64,000 nt of DNA from Bacilli bacterium (GCA_017544165.1 JAFYER010000012.1:131538-195537); one strand, 5' to 3'. Positions 2,230 to 21,190 are shown, counted from the first letter of the stretch. The notes: generated by a model from the sequence alone, not told the origin. Made by a program: numbers and translations.

Positions 2230-2313
2230 TGGTGCAGGTAAAGGGACTCGAACCCCCACGGATGATCCATTAGATCCTAAGTCTAACGCGTCTACCAATT
2301 CCGCCATACCTGC
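2230..2313 (-). tRNA. tRNA-Leu (anticodon UAG)
   Basis: Reverse complement reads GCAGGTATGGCGGAATTGGTAGACGCGTTAGACTTAGGATCTAATGGATCATCCGTGGGGGTTCGAGTCCCTTTACCTGCACCA. It has a cloverleaf with a long variable arm, anticodon loop CTTAGGA, and an encoded CCA end. Confidence 0.85.
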
Positions 2314-2322
2314 ATATTATAG

Positions 2323-2399
2323 TGGTGGGCCTCATAGGACTCGAACCTATGACCATTCGGTTATGAGCCGAGTGCTCTAACCAACTGAGCTAGAGGCCC
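2323..2399 (-). tRNA. tRNA with CAU anticodon, most likely tRNA-Ile2 (lysidine) rather than elongator Met
   Basis: Reverse complement reads GGGCCTCTAGCTCAGTTGGTTAGAGCACTCGGCTCATAACCGAATGGTCATAGGTTCGAGTCCTATGAGGCCCACCA. The anticodon stem-loop CGGCTCATAACCG matches B. subtilis tRNA-Ile2(CAU). Confidence 0.8.
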
Positions 2400-2480: not shown

Positions 2481-2900
2481 CTATTTTCCTTGTAACATGT
2501 TTAGTAAATCAATTTTAAACTTTTCTTTCGAAGCATTCTCTTTAGAAATCATAATGCCTTTATAAGTAGTAAGCTCACTTCTATGACCTTCAAGTAAGAT
2601 ATCTTCTGGTGTCAAAGTTTCAAGCATAACAACTTCTTCTTTTTTATGAACTGTATAAATTAACTTGATTTCACCATGAATTTGAGCAAATATCTTATCA
2701 CTAGGTAATTTAAGTTCGTACTTTTCAGTACCGTTTTTCTTGTTACTTTCAACAAGTTCTCCTAGAAACTTACCACTTCTTAATGATGGATAGTATTCAA
2801 AATTTAATTTTTTAAATGCTATCATATTATACTTCTTAAGAGCTCTTTCTAGCTTTCTAAATTCGTTTTCATTGACGTAATCCAAAACATACCCCTTCAT
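2481..2900 (-). CDS. hypothetical protein (C-terminal region weakly RelE/ParE-toxin-like)
   Basis: 139-aa ORF. The C-terminal segment IKLIYTVHKKEEVVMLETL...GHRSELTTYKG resembles the RelE/ParE '..iiY..d...v.il..GHRkd.Y' ending. No small antitoxin partner is evident. Confidence 0.45.
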   Translation of the reverse strand: MKGYVLDYVNENEFRKLERALKKYNMIAFKKLNFEYYPSLRSGKFLGELVESNKKNGTEKYELKLPSDKIFAQIHGEIKLIYTVHKKEEVVMLETLTPEDILLEGHRSELTTYKGIMISKENASKEKFKIDLLNMLQGK

Positions 2901-3053
2901 AATCTCTACCCCCTATGACAAGATAATTATATCATATCTTGATGTGTATGTCAATTTGGTGTCTATCTATATTATCTCACCATGTGCTTAAAATATACCA
3001 TATTTTGAGTTTTTTGTCAAGTATATATGTAAAGATATTAAAAAAGTATGGAC

Positions 3054-3731
3054 TTAATCCATATTTTGTAGTATCTTTCTAACTCTTCCTGGGCCAATTA
3101 ATTCTGGTTGAATGCTTTTTTTATCTTCGATTTCAACAGGTTTATAACTATATTTCAAGCCTAAAGAAGCCATTAATCTCGTATAAAATTTCATTGCTCC
3201 TGGATAATTGCTAAAGCTTACCATCTTGGCAAAAGAATCCATTGTTGGTAAAAGTTCAGATTCCATGAATAAAAGTGTTTGCTCTTTATTTTCGTTGTAG
3301 GCATCAAGTAATTTATTAGCAAGTCTTAGACCATTAACATCATATTCTCCCAAGAATTCTATTCCACTTTGAATACTGATTGCAAACTCTCTAAACTCCT
3401 TGAAAGCATTTAAATAAGAACTGATTTGCTCTTTTCTATCTTCGCCATATTCGATTGAAAGAATCTTACAAATTGTTGATACAACATACCAGTAAGATGA
3501 ATCAGGTTTTGGGTCATATCCTTTTCTAACTCTAAATGATACAGCGTCATCCATTTGATTATTTCCTCTTACTTTATCGAAGTCATATGAACTGCAACTT
3601 TCATCAAAAGCCATTGGTCGATGATGATGTTTGCATCTAAAACCCCGATGAGTTGAGTCACTATAGCTATATATATCATATTCTTTACATGTTAAACAAT
3701 GATCTTTAAATTCTTTTCGATAATCGCGCAT
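3054..3731 (-). CDS. hypothetical protein with Cys/His-rich (putative metal-binding) N-terminus
   Basis: 225-aa ORF. The N-terminal 50 aa contain C..C...C.HHH...C. No recognisable catalytic motif. It lies immediately upstream of the 139-aa ORF. Confidence 0.5.
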   Translation of the reverse strand: MRDYRKEFKDHCLTCKEYDIYSYSDSTHRGFRCKHHHRPMAFDESCSSYDFDKVRGNNQMDDAVSFRVRKGYDPKPDSSYWYVVSTICKILSIEYGEDRKEQISSYLNAFKEFREFAISIQSGIEFLGEYDVNGLRLANKLLDAYNENKEQTLLFMESELLPTMDSFAKMVSFSNYPGAMKFYTRLMASLGLKYSYKPVEIEDKKSIQPELIGPGRVRKILQNMD

Positions 3732-3779
3732 AAAAACCTCCTTAAATGCTCAAATATTATATCGCAAACATAGAAAAAG

Positions 3780-4031
3780 TCAAACTTTAAGTTTGACTAT
3801 CGTTTGACCTATATTCCAATTATCAAGTTTAAACTCTAGGACATTTTTATTATTTTTTAATACCTCATGCGTCTTCTTTGTTAAAATGCCAGTACTTTTG
3901 CCATGAACAATAACCACTACCTCGTTATGCATTTTGACGTTATCATTAATAAACTCAATTATTAGTGCCTCCACCATAGCCTCAATTTCGCCATGTAAGT
4001 CTAAGTGAGGTGTCTTACTGGTTACTAGCAC
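3780..4031 (-). CDS. stand-alone Smr-domain protein
   Basis: 83 aa with the LDLHG motif and HGKSTG core of the Smr (MutS2 C-terminal-like) nuclease domain. It overlaps the upstream kinase gene by 17 nt. Confidence 0.65.
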   Translation of the reverse strand: MLVTSKTPHLDLHGEIEAMVEALIIEFINDNVKMHNEVVVIVHGKSTGILTKKTHEVLKNNKNVLEFKLDNWNIGQTIVKLKV

Positions 4032-5025
4032 TTTGATTGCTTTCTGGTGTCGACTCAGCAGTTGGAGCTGGTACAGGTGTTGGTGCAGCAGCCGGTGTTT
4101 CCGCTGGAGATACTACTTGATCCGGATATTTTTGCTTGAAATAAGTCATTATTTCACTCATTTCCGGTACAGCTTCTCTAGTACCAATTTTTCCACACGT
4201 TAGACCTGCAGCAATATTAGCAAAGGTTACCATTTTTTCAATATCATAATTTTGAGTTATGGCATATATAAATGCTGCTCTAAAAATATCGCCAGAACCA
4301 GTTGTATCTTTAACATCTAACTTTAAACCTGGCATAACTTTAATTTGGTTATTATTAATATATAATGCGCCTTGATCTTCAAGAGTAATTATTATTTCTT
4401 TACGAACTAATTTATTAAGCATCGTTGAATAAACAGTTACAAGTGATCCCGGATTATTAAAATCAATTTTTGTACCACTTAACCACTCTGCAAACTCTTT
4501 CGAAGCAATAATATATTTACAATATTTACATAATTCAAGAACTTCTTTATCGCATCTTTTCGCACCAATGACACTTGGCCTTTCTGGGAAACGATTTAGT
4601 AAAGAAAGAGTTGCTCCATAATCGTATCCATCAGTATAAATTATATCAGGTTCAAACTGAACTTCGCTTTTCTTTAAAAGAAGCTTTTCTTTGCTTATAT
4701 TATTTACTACTTTTTCTTTGGTTTCCGGATCAATAGTTATGAAAGATATTGATGTCCTTTTTTCATAAGCTGTTTCAACATATTCTGTATGAACCCCTTC
4801 TTCTTCGAGTTCTTTTTTAATAATTGTTCCGTAAGAATCATCGCCAACTACTGAAGCCAAATAAGAATCAAGTTTATACTTTCCTAAAGTATACGCAACA
4901 TTGCAAGCACTACCGCTGCCACATTCGATGAAATCATCATAATAAAATTCTCCATTTACGTTAACCTTCCCGTTTTTTTGTGCAATAATATTTATTTTAC
5001 TTTCTCCGATTACTAGTGCCTTCAT
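4015..5025 (-). CDS. PfkB-family carbohydrate/nucleoside kinase with Pro/Ala/Thr-rich C-terminal tail
   Basis: Ribokinase-like fold signatures are present: GGS.N N-terminal region and the DTTGAGD-like GSGDIFRAAFIYA anion-hole motif. A low-complexity tail PAETPAAAPTPVPAPTAEST follows. Confidence 0.75.
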   Translation of the reverse strand: MKALVIGESKINIIAQKNGKVNVNGEFYYDDFIECGSGSACNVAYTLGKYKLDSYLASVVGDDSYGTIIKKELEEEGVHTEYVETAYEKRTSISFITIDPETKEKVVNNISKEKLLLKKSEVQFEPDIIYTDGYDYGATLSLLNRFPERPSVIGAKRCDKEVLELCKYCKYIIASKEFAEWLSGTKIDFNNPGSLVTVYSTMLNKLVRKEIIITLEDQGALYINNNQIKVMPGLKLDVKDTTGSGDIFRAAFIYAITQNYDIEKMVTFANIAAGLTCGKIGTREAVPEMSEIMTYFKQKYPDQVVSPAETPAAAPTPVPAPTAESTPESNQSASNQ

Positions 5026-5106
5026 TTTACCGACCCTTTCTATTTTACATAATTATTATACAATAAAAGATAGATATTTTAAAGTAATAAATGTATAATA
5101 TTATTT

Positions 5107-5361
5107 ATGGGTGATATAAAAATGAGAGAAATTAAAGAAAATACGACATATAGGCATTTTAAAGGAAATGTCTACAGAGTACTGTATATCGGATATGATG
5201 CTGAGCATGATAAAGATGGAGAAATGGAAAAACTTGTCATTTATCAATCTAATCATGATGGTAAAATTCTTGTAAGAAGTTATGATAATTTTATATCAAA
5301 AGTTGATAAAGAAAAATATCCAAATGCAGATCAAGAATATCGTTTCGAAGAAGTAAATTAA
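5107..5361 (+). CDS. DUF1653 domain protein
   Basis: 84 aa, YRHFKGNVYRV...YQS...W.R pattern typical of DUF1653. Confidence 0.5.
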   Translation: MGDIKMREIKENTTYRHFKGNVYRVLYIGYDAEHDKDGEMEKLVIYQSNHDGKILVRSYDNFISKVDKEKYPNADQEYRFEEVN

Positions 5362-6014
5362 TTTTTACTTTTTTTTATGATAAATATTTTACTTTTATTA
5401 TAAAATCCATAAAAAATATCTTTTAATTCGACATTTTGATTATCGAGCATATTTAAAAGCCATCTTTCATTTTTATGTAAATATTTCAAAGTTTCTTTTT
5501 CTATTCTTCCATCTAAAACAAGTGGCATTGGATAACTGCCTTTTAATTTAAATGGTTTATACTTAAATACTGATAACTTACCATTTGTCTCTAAAAAAGC
5601 ATATTCTACTTCACTTATATCCCTAACATCTTTTTGACGAAGGGATAAAAGTAAATCATCAAGATTATATCTTTGCTTAACCATTTCGTGGTAATTAATA
5701 TGGCCATTTGCAATAATAAGTGAAGGTTTACCTTCAAGGATAATTCTTAACTTCCTATCTTTCGTCGAAATAAAAGCTAAGAATATCTCTAAAATAACAA
5801 GCAATAAAATGGGAACAATTGTCAAATATATTGGGTCAAAGAGATTTTCTATCGAAATAGCGACAAGTTCTGCAATTAATATAGAAACAATTAAATCAAT
5901 TATACCTAACTGACCTATTTCTCTTTTTCCCATCATTCGATAAGAAATTGTAATAAAAAAATAAAAAAAGATAGTTCGGAAAACAACTGTAAATAATCTC
6001 ATTATAATCACCAA
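5358..6014 (-). CDS. DUF421 (YetF/YdfS-like) membrane protein
   Basis: N-terminal TM helices, then the conserved GKREIGQL...D...I...A...I motif and a C-terminal YetF-like soluble domain. Confidence 0.65.
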   Translation of the reverse strand: MVIIMRLFTVVFRTIFFYFFITISYRMMGKREIGQLGIIDLIVSILIAELVAISIENLFDPIYLTIVPILLLVILEIFLAFISTKDRKLRIILEGKPSLIIANGHINYHEMVKQRYNLDDLLLSLRQKDVRDISEVEYAFLETNGKLSVFKYKPFKLKGSYPMPLVLDGRIEKETLKYLHKNERWLLNMLDNQNVELKDIFYGFYNKSKIFIIKKSKN

Positions 6015-6067
6015 TATAATTATGCATCAAAACATATTTTTTTAATCATTTCATATTATTTATTAAG

Positions 6068-6428
6068 GTGATTAATATAAAAAATTTATTTAAAAAATTT
6101 GGTATTTTTATCTTAATTGAGGTTCTTCTAGTCCTTGTTATGAGTTTTTTTAATTTAATCGGTGTTAATTCATCATTTACCAAAATATTAATCTTTATTT
6201 CTAACATTGTTATTTTCTTTGTCTTTGGTTTTAAATCAGGCAAAAAATCAAATAGAAAAGGATTAAATGAAGGATTAATAAATGGATTTATCTTAATAGG
6301 CATACTTTTTCTAATATCCCTAATTTTTTATGCTAAATCATTTTCTTTGGGAACTATTTTTTACTATTTAACGCTGATGACTACCTCGATTATTTCTGCA
6401 ATAATTGGCAAAAATAAAAAAGTAGAAA

Positions 6429-6442
<14 letters not shown>
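6068..6442 (+). CDS. small polytopic membrane protein (TIGR04086-like)
   Basis: 124-aa ORF with 4 predicted TM helices. The antisense 85-aa ORF 6046..6303 is considered spurious. Confidence 0.45.
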
Positions 6443-7905
<1,463 letters not shown>

Positions 7906-14886: not shown

Positions 14887-14981
14887 TTCTTTTCACCATA
14901 TAAATAATACCATAAAAAGTCATTAAATAAAATAATGCCTTGTTTTTTTGTGTAAATAAAAAGAATACATTACTTGTATTC

Positions 14982-15878
14982 TTAGTAATCTTCTAAAAAA
15001 TTAATAGCTTTAGTGGCCGCTATAGCTCCATCACTTGTGGCAGTTGTAAGTTGACGAAGTGTTTTTACTCGGCAGTCTCCTGCAACGAAAATCCCTTCTT
15101 CATTAGTTAAACAATCTTCACTTTGAATGTAGTTATCTTCACTAAGCGTCAACTTATCTTTTACAAGTTCAGTTTGAGCATCTAAACCAATTGATAAGAA
15201 TAATCCTTCGATTTCTAAAGATTTATCTTCTCCATCCATTTGATAGTTAATTCCTGTAAGATGTTCATTACCAATTAATTTAGTAACAACACTTTTGTAA
15301 AGAATTTCAATATTATCAGTCTCTTCGATTTTCTTAATTAAAGTACTATCGCTACGCATTTTATCTTTGCGAACAATCAAATATACTTTATTACATATTT
15401 TTGATAAATAAATGGCATTAACAGCGGCACTATTGCCACCACCTACGACAGCGACATCTTTATTCTTAAAAAAGGCTCCATCACAAGATGTACAAAATGA
15501 GATACCATTGCCGATAAGATTTGTTTCATTTTCAAGGCCTAGTAAACGATATTTAGCTCCGGTTGCTATTATTAAGACTTTACCTTCATAACTAGTATAA
15601 TCAGTTGTAACTTTTTTAACTTTACCAGTAGTAATTTTTAAAACCTCTTCGTATTCGATTTGAACGCCTAAATCTTCAGCTTGTTTTTCAAAAATACTAG
15701 CAAGCTCTACGCCTGATATTTCGGGAGCACCTGGATAATTTTCAACAAGTGGCGAAGATGCAATTTGGCCACCAATAGCATTTTTTTCTAAAACTAAGGT
15801 CTTTAAGCCGGCTCTTACACAGTAGATGCCTGCAGTAATACCTGCAGGCCCTCCACCGATAATTATTACATCATACAT
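14982..15878 (-). CDS. trxB: thioredoxin-disulfide reductase-like flavoprotein
   Basis: FAD site IIGGGPAG, redox-active CTSCDG (compare CATCDG in TrxB), NADPH site GGGNSA with a VRKDKMR (HRRD-like) motif, and C-terminal GIFVAGDC. Confidence 0.8.
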   Translation of the reverse strand: MYDVIIIGGGPAGITAGIYCVRAGLKTLVLEKNAIGGQIASSPLVENYPGAPEISGVELASIFEKQAEDLGVQIEYEEVLKITTGKVKKVTTDYTSYEGKVLIIATGAKYRLLGLENETNLIGNGISFCTSCDGAFFKNKDVAVVGGGNSAAVNAIYLSKICNKVYLIVRKDKMRSDSTLIKKIEETDNIEILYKSVVTKLIGNEHLTGINYQMDGEDKSLEIEGLFLSIGLDAQTELVKDKLTLSEDNYIQSEDCLTNEEGIFVAGDCRVKTLRQLTTATSDGAIAATKAINFLEDY

Positions 15879-15881
15879 ATT

Positions 15882-18278
15882 TTATTTTTTATCCTCGATG
15901 TATTTTTTGATATTAGAAAGGTTAGCAATAAGTGTAGCTTCACCTTTTTTTACCTCGACAAGTGTAGGAGCTTGACTCACACCTAAATATTTAGTAAGTT
16001 CAACTTCTTCTTCAGCGTCAATAAATTTATATTTAATTTTAGCCTTATCTAGTAACTTTTTTGCAGTTGAGCAATTTGGACAAGTTTTGGTTCCAAATAG
16101 ATAAATGCCGTTTTTAACTTTTTCTTTTTTATCTTGGCAACCACATTCACAAGTTTCATCGCAGTTGCAATTATCTTCGCAACCACATTCACAGTCTTTT
16201 GAGCATTTTGAATGTTCAATATCATATGTCTTACGCATTTTAAATTCTTTAGCCTTACCATCATTCCAGTTTTTAACAGGACGATAATATCCTGTAATAC
16301 GGCTGTATACTTCTGTTTCATCGCCACAAGTTGGGCAAGTATATACTTCGCCAGAAATATAACCATGTTTACGACATACAGAATATGTTGGACTCATTGT
16401 ATAATATGGAAGTTTATAATTTTCAGCAATCTTTCTAACTAAATTAGCAGCAGCTTTCCAGTCAGATAATCTTTCACCCATGAAGGCATGAAATACTGTT
16501 CCTGAAGTATAAAGTGTTTGAAGTTCATCTTGAATATCAAGAGCTGTAAAGATGTCTTCCGTATAACCTACTGGTAAATGAGAACTATTTGTATAATATG
16601 GAGTTTCATCATCAGAAGCCGTAATAATATCAGGGTACATTTCTTTATCTTTCTTGGCAAAACGATAAGTTGTTGATTCAGCTGGGGTCGCCTCAAGGTT
16701 ATATAAATCACCATATTCTTCTTGATAATCAGATAATTTATCTCTCATGAAGTTAAGTACTTCTTTAGTAAACTTAACTGCTTTTTCATTTGTTAAATCT
16801 TCGCCTACCCATTTAGCGTTTAAGCATGCTTCATTCATACCTACTAAACCGATTGTTGAAAAATGGTTAGCAAATGTTCCTAAATATCTTTTAGTATATG
16901 GATATAGTCCTTCATCTAATAGTTTAGTAATAACATTTCTCTTAATTTTTAAACTTCTTGCTGCTAAATTCATTAAGTTTTCTAATCTTTCATAGAATTC
17001 TTGTTCATTAGCGGAAAGATAAGCTATTCTCGGCATATTAATTGTAACTACACCAACAGAACCTGTTGATTCACCACTTCCGAAGAAACCTCCACTTTTC
17101 TTACGTAGTTCGCGAAGATCTAGACGAAGGCGACAGCACATACTTCTTACATCAGATGGCTCCATATCACTATTAATATAATTTGAGAAATATGGAGTTC
17201 CGTATTTAGCAGTCATTTCAAATAATAATTTATTATTTTCGGTTTCAGACCAATCAAAATTCTTAGTAATTGAATATGTTGGAATTGGGTATTGGAAACC
17301 ACGTCCATTAGCATCGCCTTCGATCATAAGTTCAATGAATGCCTTATTGACCATATCCATTTCTTTTTGACAGTCTTTATATTTAAAATCTACTTCCTTG
17401 CCCCCAATAATACAATTTAATTCTGCAAGGTCATTAGGTACTGTCCAATCAAGGGTAATATTAGTAAATGGTGCTTGAGTTCCCCATCTTGATGGAGTAT
17501 TAACGCCATATACAAATGATTGAATAGATTGCTTAACTTCTTTATATGATAAATTATCAATCTTAACAAATGGAGCTAAATATGTATCAAATGATGAAAA
17601 TGCTTGAGCACCAGCCCATTCATTTTGCATAATACCTAAGAAGTTTACCATTTGATTACATAATGTTGTTAAGTGTTTCGCAGGACTACTAGTAATCTTG
17701 CCGGGAACACCTCCAAGGCCTTCCTTAATAAGTTGTTTTAAACTCCAACCAGCACAATATCCTGTAAGCATTGATAAGTCATGAATATGAAAATCACAAT
17801 TACGATGAGCTTTAGCTATTTCTTCATCATATACTTCAGTAAGCCAGTAGTTAGCAGTAATTGCTCCGGAGTTACTTAAAATAAGACCACCAACAGAATA
17901 TGTTACAGTTGAGTTTTCTTTAACCCGCCAGTCGGTTACATTAATATAGCTGTTAACAACTTGTTTATAGTCAAGGATTGTTGATGACATAGCTCTTTGT
18001 TTTTCATGCAATTTACGATACAAAATATACGCCTTAGCAACATTTGTGTACCCAGCTTCCGATAAAACTACTTCTACACTATCTTGAATTGTTTCAACAT
18101 CAACAATATTATTTTTTACTTTATCAGCAAAATCTGCGGTAACTTTTAAAGCTAAGAAATCTAACACATTTTCATCGTAATTAACTTTTTCAGCCTCAAA
18201 AGCCTTCTCTATAGCCTCCTTTATCTTAATAATTTCAAATGGAACAATCTTTCCATCTCTCTTTCTAACTTTATACAT
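15882..18278 (-). CDS. nrdD: anaerobic ribonucleoside-triphosphate reductase (class III) with C-terminal Cys-rich segment and fused glutaredoxin/NrdH-like domain
   Basis: ATP-cone N-terminus; NrdD core with HDLSMLTGYC and MCCRLRLD; Zn-ribbon CPTC; and the glycyl-radical motif SRITGYY. This is followed by KCSKDCECGCEDNCNCDETCECGCQD and a CPNC redoxin domain, IYLFGTKTCPNCSTAKKLL... Confidence 0.9.
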   Translation of the reverse strand: MYKVRKRDGKIVPFEIIKIKEAIEKAFEAEKVNYDENVLDFLALKVTADFADKVKNNIVDVETIQDSVEVVLSEAGYTNVAKAYILYRKLHEKQRAMSSTILDYKQVVNSYINVTDWRVKENSTVTYSVGGLILSNSGAITANYWLTEVYDEEIAKAHRNCDFHIHDLSMLTGYCAGWSLKQLIKEGLGGVPGKITSSPAKHLTTLCNQMVNFLGIMQNEWAGAQAFSSFDTYLAPFVKIDNLSYKEVKQSIQSFVYGVNTPSRWGTQAPFTNITLDWTVPNDLAELNCIIGGKEVDFKYKDCQKEMDMVNKAFIELMIEGDANGRGFQYPIPTYSITKNFDWSETENNKLLFEMTAKYGTPYFSNYINSDMEPSDVRSMCCRLRLDLRELRKKSGGFFGSGESTGSVGVVTINMPRIAYLSANEQEFYERLENLMNLAARSLKIKRNVITKLLDEGLYPYTKRYLGTFANHFSTIGLVGMNEACLNAKWVGEDLTNEKAVKFTKEVLNFMRDKLSDYQEEYGDLYNLEATPAESTTYRFAKKDKEMYPDIITASDDETPYYTNSSHLPVGYTEDIFTALDIQDELQTLYTSGTVFHAFMGERLSDWKAAANLVRKIAENYKLPYYTMSPTYSVCRKHGYISGEVYTCPTCGDETEVYSRITGYYRPVKNWNDGKAKEFKMRKTYDIEHSKCSKDCECGCEDNCNCDETCECGCQDKKEKVKNGIYLFGTKTCPNCSTAKKLLDKAKIKYKFIDAEEEVELTKYLGVSQAPTLVEVKKGEATLIANLSNIKKYIEDKK

Positions 18279-18299: not shown

Positions 18300-18986
18300 C
18301 TATAAGTTCCGAACAATTACGTTTGGAAACTTTTCTCCCACTATTTTTTGTATATTGATTAGTTCTTCTTTACTAAATGATTCTAAAGTTTTATCTACAA
18401 CATACTCGCTTTGCTCAAAGTTTTGTAAAAAATACTTTTCACTATCCCCCAGATATTTGCATATTTCTAATATTTTATCTATATCATGAATATTTTTTAT
18501 GATTGTCGTCCTAAATTCATGATTAATAGATGCTTTTTTAAGCAATTTAATACTTTCCTTAATATTATCTATCTTAACTTTCGTCTTGATAACACTTTCA
18601 TAATCCTCAAAGGTTGTTTTAATATCCATTGCTATATAATCAATTAGGTTTTCTTCGATTAATTCCTTTAACATATTATAATTTGCACCATTAGTATCAA
18701 GTTTAACAAGATAACCTAATTCTTTAATTTTTGTAATAAAATCTTTTAGATCTTTTTGAATAGTTGGCTCCCCGCCAGTAATTACTACACCATCTAAAAC
18801 TGTTTTTCTTTTACTTAAGTAATTTAGTATTTCATCCTCAGTAATTTCTTCATTACCTTTCAAAGGAATAAGCTCTGAATTCTGACAAAAACTACATTTA
18901 AAATTACATCCTTGCGTAAATATAATACATGCTGTTTTTGATGGATAATCCAAAAGCGTTAATTTTTGAAGTCCTGCTATTTTCAT
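18300..18986 (-). CDS. nrdG: anaerobic ribonucleotide reductase activating protein (radical SAM)
   Basis: CNFKCSFCQN, a CxxxCxxC radical-SAM cluster motif, plus a GGEP SAM site. It lies between the two nrdD-type genes. Confidence 0.85.
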   Translation of the reverse strand: MKIAGLQKLTLLDYPSKTACIIFTQGCNFKCSFCQNSELIPLKGNEEITEDEILNYLSKRKTVLDGVVITGGEPTIQKDLKDFITKIKELGYLVKLDTNGANYNMLKELIEENLIDYIAMDIKTTFEDYESVIKTKVKIDNIKESIKLLKKASINHEFRTTIIKNIHDIDKILEICKYLGDSEKYFLQNFEQSEYVVDKTLESFSKEELINIQKIVGEKFPNVIVRNL

Positions 18987-20938
18987 TTTGTACCAACCTT
19001 CATCTTAGCAAAACCAATATCAACATCAATTAGTGATTTTATTAAATCTACTACTTGCTTATTATTAGCTTTCTTAGGAATATCTATAGTCAGTAAACAT
19101 CCACCTTTGAAATAAGATTGAACTTTACTTAATTTTTCCTTATTATCAATAAATTTACTGCTTTCAATTAGATCATAGACATTTTTATCAGTAATATTTT
19201 TGCTTACTCCATATATTGATTTATCAATACCGATAAGATACCTTCTTGATTGCAAATCACTTGGTTCAAAAACATTAAAGTTTATTTTTGCCTCTTCACT
19301 AAAATCAGTACATTTTTTATTAAAATAATCAAGTATTTTAATCATGAAGTCATATTGTTTTGTTTCATCTTTTTCTAATGCTATAACGCATTCTTTTAAG
19401 CCTATAAGGCCAATACTTAGATTGCCTGTTTTAATAATTTTCCGTATTTTTTGGCCGCTTTCAAGTCTCTCATCGCCAAGGATATTGCCATTAAATAGTG
19501 ATGCATAGTTTTCTTTACTTTTATTACCAATTGTTTCAAATGATAATAGTAATTCACTTTTAACTAAATCAAGTTGACTATCAAGCTCTTTATAAAACTC
19601 TTTTAAGTCTTTATTGATATATTTTAAGCCAATTCTTGCAAGGTTAATCGAGGTGCTTGCTACGACCATCCTGCCAGTTGCTTTATTTTCAGTATCATTA
19701 ATGTTTTCAAAAATACGCATGCCATTACTAAAGTATTCTGCTTCATAAGTATCATGGTTATATGAATTATCGACAAATGATAAAGAAATATTTTTTTGAT
19801 TAATGATTAGACTCGCAATTTTTGTTAAATAATGTTCATCACCATCAGACTTAACTTTAAACACAACATGAATATTATTTAAGTAGTTATTATCAGTTAA
19901 AAATGATATTAAGCTGCATCTTATAGTATTACATGCCTTTGATTCATCATTTCCTACGCTAATTGTATATGTGCAGCTTTCTTTAACATTTGTTTTTAAC
20001 ATTCCAAATACTCGACCAATAATATCGTTAATTAAGCCACTCATTTGCTTATCAACATCTTTTATAAGGGTTTTAAAAACATTTTCAATAACCGGATTAG
20101 TAATAAATTGTTTAAAGACATCGATTGAAATGTTTATATCCTCTATTTTATAAATAACTTCTTGAATCTTTTTATATGGAACAAATTCCAAAAGCCCACA
20201 CAAACGCAAATATTTTTTTAAATACTTATCAAGTTGTTTTTGATAGCAAGATATAATAAACTTTTTCAAAATAGAATCTAAAGAATTAATACCTATTTCG
20301 TTACTTACTTCACTTTGTGCATTAATAATATTACTGATAAATTCATCTAAGTATTCATCGTTTTCATCAATAGCAAGTTTAAGATTAACATGTGACAAAT
20401 ATCCTAAAGAAAAAGAGTTTAAATCGTGAATAAAAATATTGCCTTCTTCGAGAGCTCTTACATATTTACTATCTAAAACATATGCTTTAGCATATTCCGA
20501 AGAAATAATCTTACCAAATTTATTTAAAAGTTCTTTCGGAGTTAAACTTGAATCTTTACTATTGCTTTCTCCTTCAACTCTTTCAACTACCTTGACAAAT
20601 TTGTGTTGTTGTTTTTCATTAAAAACTTTTCTCGAAGCAGCTCTTTTTTGACGATAATCTTGAAAAGTTAAAAAAACTCTTTCAAACCCAGCATCCTTTA
20701 AAGTACTTTCTATGATGTCTTGAATATCTTCAACATTAATAGTTTTTCGGTCTTTATAATTAGTATTAATATACTTTAATACTTTTTCAAAAACACTATA
20801 AACTTGTTTCTCATCAGCTTCACCATATACGGCGTCAAACGCCTTTTTAACGGCTATTGCGATTTTGGAAGCGTTGAAATCAACTCTTTGTCCGCTGCGT
20901 TTAACTACAACTAGATTCTCTAATACTTCGTTCCACAT
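18983..20938 (-). CDS. NrdD-like paralogue with ATP-cone but lacking the C-terminal glycyl-radical/Zn-ribbon domain
   Basis: ATP-cone VVKRSGQRVDFNASKIAIAVKKAF; GNIFIHDLNSFSLGY aligns with HIHDLSMLTGYC of NrdD; RMVVASTSINLARIG aligns with VGVVTINMPRIA. The protein ends ...FAKMKVGTK with no RxxGY motif and no CxxC ribbon. Confidence 0.7.
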   Translation of the reverse strand: MWNEVLENLVVVKRSGQRVDFNASKIAIAVKKAFDAVYGEADEKQVYSVFEKVLKYINTNYKDRKTINVEDIQDIIESTLKDAGFERVFLTFQDYRQKRAASRKVFNEKQQHKFVKVVERVEGESNSKDSSLTPKELLNKFGKIISSEYAKAYVLDSKYVRALEEGNIFIHDLNSFSLGYLSHVNLKLAIDENDEYLDEFISNIINAQSEVSNEIGINSLDSILKKFIISCYQKQLDKYLKKYLRLCGLLEFVPYKKIQEVIYKIEDINISIDVFKQFITNPVIENVFKTLIKDVDKQMSGLINDIIGRVFGMLKTNVKESCTYTISVGNDESKACNTIRCSLISFLTDNNYLNNIHVVFKVKSDGDEHYLTKIASLIINQKNISLSFVDNSYNHDTYEAEYFSNGMRIFENINDTENKATGRMVVASTSINLARIGLKYINKDLKEFYKELDSQLDLVKSELLLSFETIGNKSKENYASLFNGNILGDERLESGQKIRKIIKTGNLSIGLIGLKECVIALEKDETKQYDFMIKILDYFNKKCTDFSEEAKINFNVFEPSDLQSRRYLIGIDKSIYGVSKNITDKNVYDLIESSKFIDNKEKLSKVQSYFKGGCLLTIDIPKKANNKQVVDLIKSLIDVDIGFAKMKVGTK

Positions 20939-20967: not shown

Positions 20968-20983
20968 ATGATAATCTTATCAT
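20968..20983. promoter_or_regulatory. 16-bp palindrome ATGATAATCTTATCAT (Fur/PerR-box-like) in the 5' leader of the nrdD-like/nrdG/nrdD operon
   Basis: 7-2-7 inverted repeat ATGATAA-TC-TTATCAT, 30-45 nt upstream of the start codon at 20938. It resembles the TGATAAT-N-ATTATCA Fur-family consensus. Confidence 0.25.
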
Positions 20984-21150
20984 TTTAAAGATTACTTATC
21001 AATGTTTTTTTAATTAATTTTTTATTTTTTACACTTTTTTGTAAATTTTAAAAAAATAATTTTTTATATAAAAAAACATTTAGCTGTTCTAAGCCAAATA
21101 TTCATTTTTTTATTTTTTCGTTCATTGACAATTAATAGACATTAGTAACT

Positions 21151-21181
21151 AAATAAATAAAAAACCATTCCAATTGGAATG
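21151..21181 (-). terminator. rho-independent terminator downstream of tsf
   Basis: Palindrome CATTCCAATTGGAATG (21166..21181), followed on the minus strand by GTTTTTTATTTATTT. Confidence 0.5.
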
Positions 21182-21190
21182 ATTTAATTA

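Follow-up and report, generated by a model that had tools for sequence, protein, structure and literature searches.

Yeast Rnr4 is the catalytically dead paralogue partner of Rnr2, and GrcA (YfiD) is a spare-part protein that provides a glycyl-radical domain without a barrel. Here we analysed a 64,000-nt stretch of a Bacilli bacterium genome (GCA_017544165.1, JAFYER010000012.1:131538-195537; hereafter the window), in which an open reading frame (ORF) resembling nrdD, the gene for the catalytic protein of class III ribonucleotide reductase (RNR), precedes nrdG, nrdD and trxB. Its product, called the paralogue in the following, is the mirror image of GrcA; both are extra polypeptides of glycyl-radical-enzyme systems, the role of the paralogue being predicted. 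The paralogue resembles the trypanosomatid prozyme of S-adenosylmethionine decarboxylase (AdoMetDC; PMC5201418) and Rnr4 in being a dead paralogue under purifying selection that is probably expressed with the active enzyme. Complexes are proven for these two and are predicted from gene linkage for the paralogue, which belongs to another subclass than its neighbour and is least conserved in the region that would make up the classical dimer interface. Small subunits that modulate glycyl radical enzymes have also been described for benzylsuccinate synthase (BSS) and 4-hydroxyphenylacetate decarboxylase (HPAD); these are small Fe-S or Fe proteins (PMC13450708) and, unlike the paralogue, unrelated to the barrel.

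The best match of the paralogue in both sequence and structure is the NrdD of Prevotella copri (single-Cys, formate-type lineage; PRK07111; PDB 8P23 and related entries), with which it shares a two-nucleotide cone, a KQQHK linker helix, a 10-stranded barrel and, behind alphaA/alphaB, an insertion of ~75 residues. Unlike P. copri NrdD, it has no Zn-ribbon, Gly domain, catalytic Cys pair, betaF Asn or NxN flap, and its PRK07111 score is about a quarter of the equivalog cutoff. With NrdR, a transcriptional repressor of nrd operons that binds NrdR boxes and is dedicated to RNR control (PMC9110341), it has in common that a non-catalytic protein retains an ATP-cone, predicted in the paralogue to bind ATP/dATP, as its conserved module. 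Whereas NrdR has ~150 amino acids (aa) and an N-terminal Zn-ribbon DNA-binding domain, the paralogue has 651 aa, lacks a Zn-ribbon as well as any recognisable domain for DNA binding, and has a dead barrel of 520 aa instead.

Fold and missing catalytic elements of the NrdD-like protein

The initial annotation of the locus had described a 651-aa ORF with an ATP-cone and collinear similarity to NrdD, and both observations were borne out. Pfam recognised the cone with 59.1 bits against a cutoff of 25.8 (PF03477), and BLASTP returned two blocks against the 798-aa neighbouring NrdD, one containing the FIHDL/HIHDL pairing (26% identity over 242 aa, E 2e-11) and the other the VASTSINLARIG/VGVVTINMPRIA pairing (27% identity over 159 aa, E 5e-4). 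The NrdD profile PF13597 is matched by aa 128-645, corresponding to profile positions 4-503 of 562 (E 4.3e-38), so that the C-terminal part of the profile is missing. The AlphaFold2 (AF2) model reached a predicted local distance difference test (pLDDT) value of 90.2 and a predicted template modelling (pTM) score of 0.87, and its top Foldseek matches in the PDB were the NrdDs of P. copri, S. thermophilus, T4 and T. maritima, with E-values down to 1e-31 and template modelling (TM) scores of 0.66-0.78. AF2 also predicts helices around the linker (H86-105, H109-125) and a short helix (H4-8) in the N-terminal extension of aa 1-9, which is nearly invariant in the close clade and variable in the wider family. 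By homology and predicted fold, the paralogue is a member of the NrdD superfamily. The NCBIfam NrdD equivalogs, in turn, all score far below their cutoffs (best PRK07111, 188.6 bits vs 764; TIGR02487, 112.8 bits vs 326), and PRK08270 gives 79 bits for the paralogue, compared with 1146 bits for the neighbouring NrdD.

For the active site, residue roles were taken from PMC11226230 and PMC4493059 and mapped by a phmmer alignment to 8p23 and an L-INS-i multiple sequence alignment (MSA), using the residue numbering of P. copri NrdD (PDB sequence index = paper number + 4). Neither an RxxG[YF] motif nor a CxxC, as expected for the four-Cys Zn-ribbon in front of the Gly loop, occurs in the 651 aa, which, together with the absent C-terminus of PF13597, agrees with the earlier statement that the glycyl-radical loop and the CxxC ribbon are lacking. 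In the MSA the paralogue family terminates where catalytic NrdDs begin their Zn-ribbon, and because the paralogue stops directly after the last barrel strand, both the Zn-ribbon and the glycyl-radical domain are missing. The shortfall of ~150 aa given initially is correct against the glutaredoxin (Grx)-fused neighbour, but in comparison with the catalytic NrdDs most closely related to it, only ~65 aa are absent, comprising the Zn-ribbon, the Gly loop and the tail. That a sequencing error might hide the C-terminal domain can be dismissed, since no glycyl-radical domain was present in any of the three frames downstream of the paralogue, where only nrdG lies, and tblastn of the 64-kb window with two glycyl-radical-domain queries matched solely the domain of the catalytic NrdD itself. 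Lacking this domain, the paralogue cannot be activated by NrdG on its own, as had been proposed.

The loss extends to the catalytic cysteines and other active-site elements, which is an addition to the initial annotation. The TTC[CL]Q segment of catalytic NrdDs aligns to LSHVN of the paralogue, in which H183 takes the place of the betaA Cys; across the family this position varies between H, Y, N, S and A, and Cys was found in 0 of 15 aligned sequences. The finger loop carries the thiyl-radical Cys in an MGCR or MCCR motif (defined in PMC9669993), and M[GC]CR is present in none of the 85 related loci (83 of them forming the main clade), the Cys position being occupied mostly by N or D and occasionally by T, S, G or L. 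On betaF, the active-site position that is Asn in the formate type and Cys or Glu in the thioredoxin type (roles according to PMC11226230) is likewise replaced (Table 1). The NxN flap, which follows the linker helix in catalytic NrdDs, is deleted, loop 2 (SRAGAQVP in catalytic NrdDs) is shortened and unconserved, and the PAEG motif of the catalytic NrdD is absent. Having lost the finger-loop Cys, the betaA Cys, the betaF Asn, the NxN flap, loop 2 and the Zn-ribbon/glycyl-radical domain, the paralogue cannot reduce nucleotides. It is a stable pseudoenzyme under selection, without any element needed for radical chemistry.

Spread, selection and ancestry of the family

A word-indexed search returned >120 clusters with 52-100% identity, nearly all of 640-653 aa, while HMMER, run exhaustively against 1.84 billion cluster representatives, yielded 119 proteins at E<=1e-30, ~100 of which are full-length relatives (600-715 aa, 26-64% identity to the window protein). 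A glycyl-radical motif in the tail and a complete Zn-ribbon are both absent from all of these ~100 family representatives, which stand for clusters at 50% identity. In a few of them, RxxG[YF] (in the final barrel strand) or CxxC occurs by chance, and a DIGF.K.KVG-like strand forms the C-terminus of most. The first catalytic NrdDs (RITGY, CPxC) appear in the HMMER ranking only at E ~1e-35. When one genome per GTDB species was scanned, at least 289 species genomes encoded a relative, and the best 80 of these 289 are all uncultured gut or rumen assemblies (metagenome-assembled or metagenome-derived), labelled Bacilli, Erysipelotrichaceae, Tenericutes/Mollicutes, Clostridium sp. CAG:762 or CAG:1193, among others. 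In the source annotations, one member is called 'hypothetical protein' (NCBI) and another 'ribonucleoside-triphosphate reductase (formate)' (JGI). We found no description of a NrdD paralogue without radical domain in the open literature, including the main RNR phylogeny and structure papers, and a 2026 review of glycyl radical enzymes, which deliberately omits class III RNRs, mentions no dead-barrel subunit (PMC13450708). We conclude that the paralogue family is real, widespread and apparently undescribed. A phage origin was rejected, the only viral match being weak (26% identity).

The phylogenetic survey beside nrdG that had been suggested initially found the order paralogue-nrdG-nrdD kept in 83 of 85 loci, with trxB next wherever the contig extends and with differing flanking genes. 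In 84 of the 85 loci the ORF of the paralogue is intact (616-675 aa) and has the same structural end point. The ratio of nonsynonymous to synonymous substitutions (dN/dS; Nei-Gojobori, pairs with unsaturated dS) is 0.08-0.20 for the paralogue, and 0.05-0.27, 0.013-0.09 and 0.05-0.18 for its operon neighbours nrdG, nrdD and trxB, respectively, the paralogue thus being comparable to nrdG and trxB. These data bear on the possibility, also raised initially, of a decaying duplicate, or more generally of an artefact in the form of a truncated or frameshifted nrdD or a pseudogene. Such decay would be in line with the loss of all catalytic residues, with an evolution faster than that of nrdD and with the one disrupted copy, but it is refuted by ORF integrity, the common end point, dN/dS and the spread over at least 289 species; the start of nrdG 4 nt before the paralogue stop, with no glycyl-radical domain downstream, and the confident AF2 model speak against it as well, leaving this explanation a negligible probability. 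The disrupted copy itself (L044, 737..2686) is interrupted by two TAA codons in frame, three codons apart, within A/T-rich sequence (YKLY*K*YIY), which may reflect either an error of assembly or a real inactivation of recent date.

By alignment, the paralogue descends from the single-Cys (MGCR, P. copri-like) NrdD lineage and not from that of its neighbour. The family is collinear over the whole barrel with single-Cys NrdDs (P0228, P0232, the NrdD of locus L072 and P. copri NrdD; L-INS-i), and the helical insertion of ~75 residues is common to the family and the MGCR-type NrdDs and absent from the neighbouring MCCR-type NrdD. The double-Cys motif of the latter (SMCCR) marks the thioredoxin-type lineage (PMC9669993), which fits its fused glutaredoxin and the adjacent trxB. 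The designation as a paralogue of the neighbour therefore holds in the sense of a NrdD homologue, yet one of a different NrdD subclass: a recent duplication of the adjacent nrdD is ruled out by the scores for PRK07111 and PRK08270 (188 vs 79 bits), the shared insertion and the tandem in L072. In this locus and in L068, the gene directly following the paralogue is an MGCR-type catalytic nrdD, and the L072 arrangement looks like the ancestral tandem-duplication state. There (2785..7739), a gap of 20 nt separates the paralogue (675 aa) from an MGCR-type NrdD of 782 aa, and the gene for a short NrdG of 185 aa begins right behind the nrdD stop codon; two ORFs on the opposite strand further upstream resemble a transposase and a sigma factor. 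Of two distant members, one is divergent from an MCCR-type nrdD-nrdG pair (L087) and one stands alone between a glycosyltransferase gene and mscL (L086). The protein P0208, in which the catalytic residues and the Gly motif are gone and a CPGC remnant is still present, looks from its sequence like an intermediate state. Among the distant catalytic NrdDs P0263, P0238, P0250, P0257 and P0265, large intein-like insertions were noticed at the finger-loop MGC|R or in loop 2 at NLNTMH|SRAG; P0238, P0239 and P0250 end just past the Zn-ribbon without an RxxGY loop and may be split or truncated genes.

The conserved ATP-cone and a possible role in nucleotide sensing

Alignment columns of the family have a mean conservation of 0.67 in the cone and 0.44 in the barrel. 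In a 35-sequence family alignment extending down to 25% identity, nine of 12 invariant residues belong to the cone or linker (R14, F21, V53, E70, Q73, Y95, R96, R99, R103). Paralogue residues K13, R14, Y95, R96, R99 and R103, of which K13 is at least 90% conserved and the others are invariant, correspond to Lys7, Arg8, Tyr83, Arg84, Arg87 and Arg91 of P. copri NrdD, and these, Arg84 excepted, hold two nucleotides in the P. copri cone (PMC11226230). The alignment proposed initially to find out which residues are kept, made here with MGCR-type NrdDs and 8p23, hence separates lost catalytic cysteines from retained cone residues. The cone is the most conserved region and probably the functional core of the protein, and its residues predict nucleotide binding of the fully equipped two-nucleotide type. 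In 84 of 85 loci the paralogue keeps YRxxRxxxR, and the cone of the co-encoded catalytic NrdD reads YRxxHxxxR, with His at the position of P. copri Arg87, in ~72 of 81 loci. The cones of the paralogue and of the catalytic NrdD (17979..18278 in the window) may thus differ in nucleotide stoichiometry.

On these grounds we tentatively regard the paralogue as a non-catalytic partner of class III RNR that would sense ATP and dATP, a proposal to which we give somewhat less than an even chance. The paralogue would act as an ATP/dATP sensor for the class III RNR system with which it is co-transcribed. Nucleotide-loaded cones would bring it and the catalytic NrdD together in hetero-oligomers, using cone-cone and cone-core contacts like those by which the dATP-loaded cones of P. 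copri NrdD build tetramers (PMC11226230), and a contact with the translationally coupled NrdG might be made as well. The activity or activation of the real reductase would in this way be tuned to the dATP/ATP ratio, the dead barrel serving as a scaffold that presents the cone. This cone-driven route is favoured because of the P. copri precedent and because the cone is the one element common to the paralogue and to both catalytic subclasses accompanying it. Several independent gene arrangements, moreover, link the paralogue to class III RNR. More doubtful is the stricter version, in which it would be a dedicated trans-acting allosteric subunit whose two-nucleotide cone reads dATP/ATP and controls NrdD or NrdG activation via hetero-oligomerisation.

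The least conserved part of the family, aa 191-320 (alphaA to the insertion; 0.37), is equivalent to the dimer interface and specificity site of real NrdDs and thus bears on a classical alpha-alpha' heterodimer, in which the dead protomer would replace one NrdD subunit via the alphaA/alphaB interface. As in Rnr2-Rnr4 or the prozyme, the paralogue would then give half of the specificity sites and only the catalytic protomer would turn over. Such pairing is suggested by the presence of both genes in one operon, by an EQxGE motif that is partly kept and aligns to DQHGG at the end of alphaA, by the functional asymmetry of P. copri NrdD dimers, which contain one active and one inactive monomer (PMC11226230), and by the dead paralogues that activate an active partner elsewhere (PMC5201418). 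However, the interface region, which is highly conserved in catalytic NrdDs, is precisely where conservation falls lowest, and loop 2, the relay of the specificity signal, is shortened and degenerate. The paralogue also differs in subclass from its neighbour, accompanies MCCR-type or MGCR-type NrdDs or neither, and drops to 34% identity where the partner NrdD stays at 76% or more. With a poorly conserved interface, a degenerate loop 2 and swapped partner subclasses, we consider the classical heterodimer improbable.

The junction to nrdG raises another explanation, namely an adaptor directed at NrdG, in which the dead barrel would bind NrdG as scaffold, chaperone or gatekeeper and the cone would make radical installation nucleotide-dependent. 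The distance between the paralogue stop and the nrdG start is -11 to +9 nt in 83 of 83 main-clade loci, with overlap in 59, and nrdD, by contrast, has its own spacer and ribosome-binding site; the close junctions point to coupled, equimolar synthesis of the paralogue and NrdG. This coupling does not hold for other members, since nrdG is coupled to nrdD in L072 (order paralogue-nrdD-nrdG), the paralogue is divergently transcribed in L087 and it stands alone in L086. Activases of glycyl radical enzymes dock on the glycyl-radical domain itself, as in the pair of pyruvate formate-lyase (PFL) and its activating enzyme (PFL-AE), and this docking element is absent from the paralogue. In addition, the glycyl radical of P. 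copri NrdD still forms in the dATP-inhibited state (PMC11226230). An adaptor of this kind is therefore an unlikely account of the family.

Conservation in the barrel could also reflect a nucleotide-dependent function outside RNR control, such as the binding or buffering of NTPs or dNTPs, a non-radical enzyme activity or some other regulation, the linkage to nrd genes then being historical. A second conserved block of the family spans aa 426-520, and barrel positions beyond the old catalytic set are invariant (N432, G513, Y588) or at least 90% conserved (R435, E468, R499, E516, D572). The triphosphate-binding HxHD motif, which reads HYHD in T. maritima NrdD (PMC4493059), is partly retained as well, with H171 invariant across the close clade, and stand-alone members exist. 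Several of the conserved barrel positions, on the retained SINLxR and IGxxGLxE strands, are nevertheless also conserved in catalytic NrdDs and may be structural, and most members still lie next to class III RNR genes, the arrangement taking four different forms. We accordingly assign such neofunctionalisation only a small probability.

Several points weigh against the proposed sensor, whose regulatory role is predicted from gene context and conservation. The catalytic NrdD has a well-scoring ATP-cone of its own (74 bits), which makes the need for another sensor in trans less than obvious. The paralogue also changes far more rapidly than nrdD (34-82% vs 76-95% identity to the window proteins in the same loci), which is unusual for a tight partner, and the stand-alone distant members, as in L086, mean that an RNR partnership is not guaranteed family-wide. 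The His-for-Arg exchange in the catalytic cone, finally, is only a hint, considering that His can also bind phosphate.

If the stricter version of the sensor proposal is correct, no earlier case of a regulatory pseudoenzyme of a glycyl radical enzyme would, as far as we found, have been described, and the paralogue may take the place of NrdR-type control at the protein level in gut and rumen Bacilli with small genomes. The family would add a new layer of control over dNTP supply and a new class of accessory proteins for glycyl radical enzymes. Structures explaining the allosteric control of anaerobic RNRs are recent, and this control has always been described as a property of the catalytic chain itself; the paralogue family offers a natural experiment on cone and barrel without catalysis. 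Its hosts are abundant uncultured gut and rumen Bacilli whose nucleotide metabolism is poorly known, and because databases label a member as a formate-type ribonucleoside-triphosphate reductase, metabolic reconstructions may count a non-functional RNR as functional.

The operon and its surroundings

The coordinates of the paralogue, its parts and the neighbouring elements are given in Table 1. Co-expression of the paralogue with nrdG, nrdD-Grx and trxB had been suggested initially, and we likewise judge the four genes to be co-transcribed. Regarding the 4-nt overlaps reported between them, the ATGA of paralogue and nrdG and the 3-nt gap between nrdD and trxB were recovered, but nrdG and nrdD are separated by a 21-nt spacer with a GAAGGAGG ribosome-binding site.

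Table 1 Positions of the NrdD-like paralogue, its parts and adjacent elements in the window
Feature	Position	Strand	Details and basis
nrdD-like paralogue	18983..20938	-	Intact ORF, 651 aa, ATG start
N-terminal extension, aa 1-9, MWNEVLENL	20912..20938	-	5' of ATP-cone roof; clade-specific
ATP-cone, aa 10-100	20639..20911	-	Pfam PF03477, E 6.5e-16
Linker helix with KQQHKF motif, aa 101-127, after cone	20558..20638	-	MSA with MGCR-type NrdDs
NrdD-type alpha/beta barrel, aa 128-651	18986..20557	-	Catalytic apparatus absent; PF13597; AF2
Remnant of HxHD triphosphate motif, IFIHD, aa 168-172	20423..20437	-	H171, D172 kept; MSA
H183 at betaA catalytic Cys position (P. copri Cys171)	20390..20392	-	MSA; L072 NrdD vs 8p23
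Degenerate finger loop, aa 401-410, EYFSNGMRIF vs AYMGCRTRV	19709..19738	-	Cys416 to N405; MSA, phmmer register
betaF GRMV, aa 422-425, vs GRGN	19664..19675	-	Active-site Asn435 to Val; MSA; PMC11226230
Last barrel strand DIGFAKMKVG, aa 640-649, paralogue end	18992-19021	-	MSA
Promoter-like site TTGATA, 17-nt spacer, TAAGAT	20974..21002	-	Extended -10 TG, A-tract before; consensus match only
ATGA stop/start overlap paralogue/nrdG	18983-18986	-	Translational coupling; sequence
nrdG, class III RNR activase, NrdG2 type	18300..18986	-	228 aa; TIGR02495, 230 bits vs 131
Catalytic NrdD-Grx	15882..18278	-	798 aa; PF13597 full length, E 6e-195; PRK08270; Grx PF00462
trxB, thioredoxin-reductase-like flavoprotein	14982..15878	-	298 aa; Pyr_redox_2, E 5.7e-44
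Terminator-like hairpin GAATACA-AGTAA-TGTATTC, then TTTTTATTT	14954..14981	-	Directly 3' of trxB; read from sequence

The catalytic NrdD consists of an ATP-cone, a barrel with SMCCR finger loop, a Zn-ribbon, SRITGY, a Cys-rich linker and a C-terminal glutaredoxin. The linker is a low-complexity stretch, CSKDCECGCEDNCNCDETCECGCQD, between the glycyl-radical domain and the glutaredoxin (window ~16130..16210, NrdD aa ~690-715), and it could be a metal-binding or redox-relay element; a CxxC-containing C-terminal extension is present in all full-length catalytic NrdD orthologues (69/69). For trxB, the score for TIGR01292 (320.9 bits) is just below the cutoff of 343. The hairpin following trxB escapes a consensus scan because its stem has only two G-C pairs.

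The same promoter layout is found upstream of the paralogue in related loci with different upstream genes, the region around it (~20974..21010) being conserved across the divergent genomes of loci L001-L085 with an A-tract, CATTGAT (-35), a 17-nt spacer and TGnTAnGAT (extended -10), and in closer relatives a TAGCCTAA motif recurs just 3' of the promoter site. In the 252-nt leader, no riboswitch or known RNA was matched by Rfam, and a canonical NrdR box was found upstream of the operons in 1 of 83 loci, which is no signal. A second terminator-like hairpin on the minus strand, ATTTGGCT-TAGAAC-AGCTAAAT followed by T7 (21070..21099), has the tsf terminator (21185..21162) on one side and the promoter of the operon on the other. 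An '[AG]TG + T>=6' element occurs at a median of -136 nt from the paralogue ATG in 68 of 83 related loci with differing upstream genes, preceded by a hairpin in many of these loci, though not all; the hairpin at 21070..21099 could act as an insulator or terminator or belong to a regulatory leader.

Across the 64-kb window, the only Rfam matches at gathering level are two adjacent tRNA genes on the minus strand (2233..2399). The GC content is 24-34% throughout, and the GC skew of the plus strand is strongly negative nearly window-wide, which fits the location of most window genes on the minus strand.

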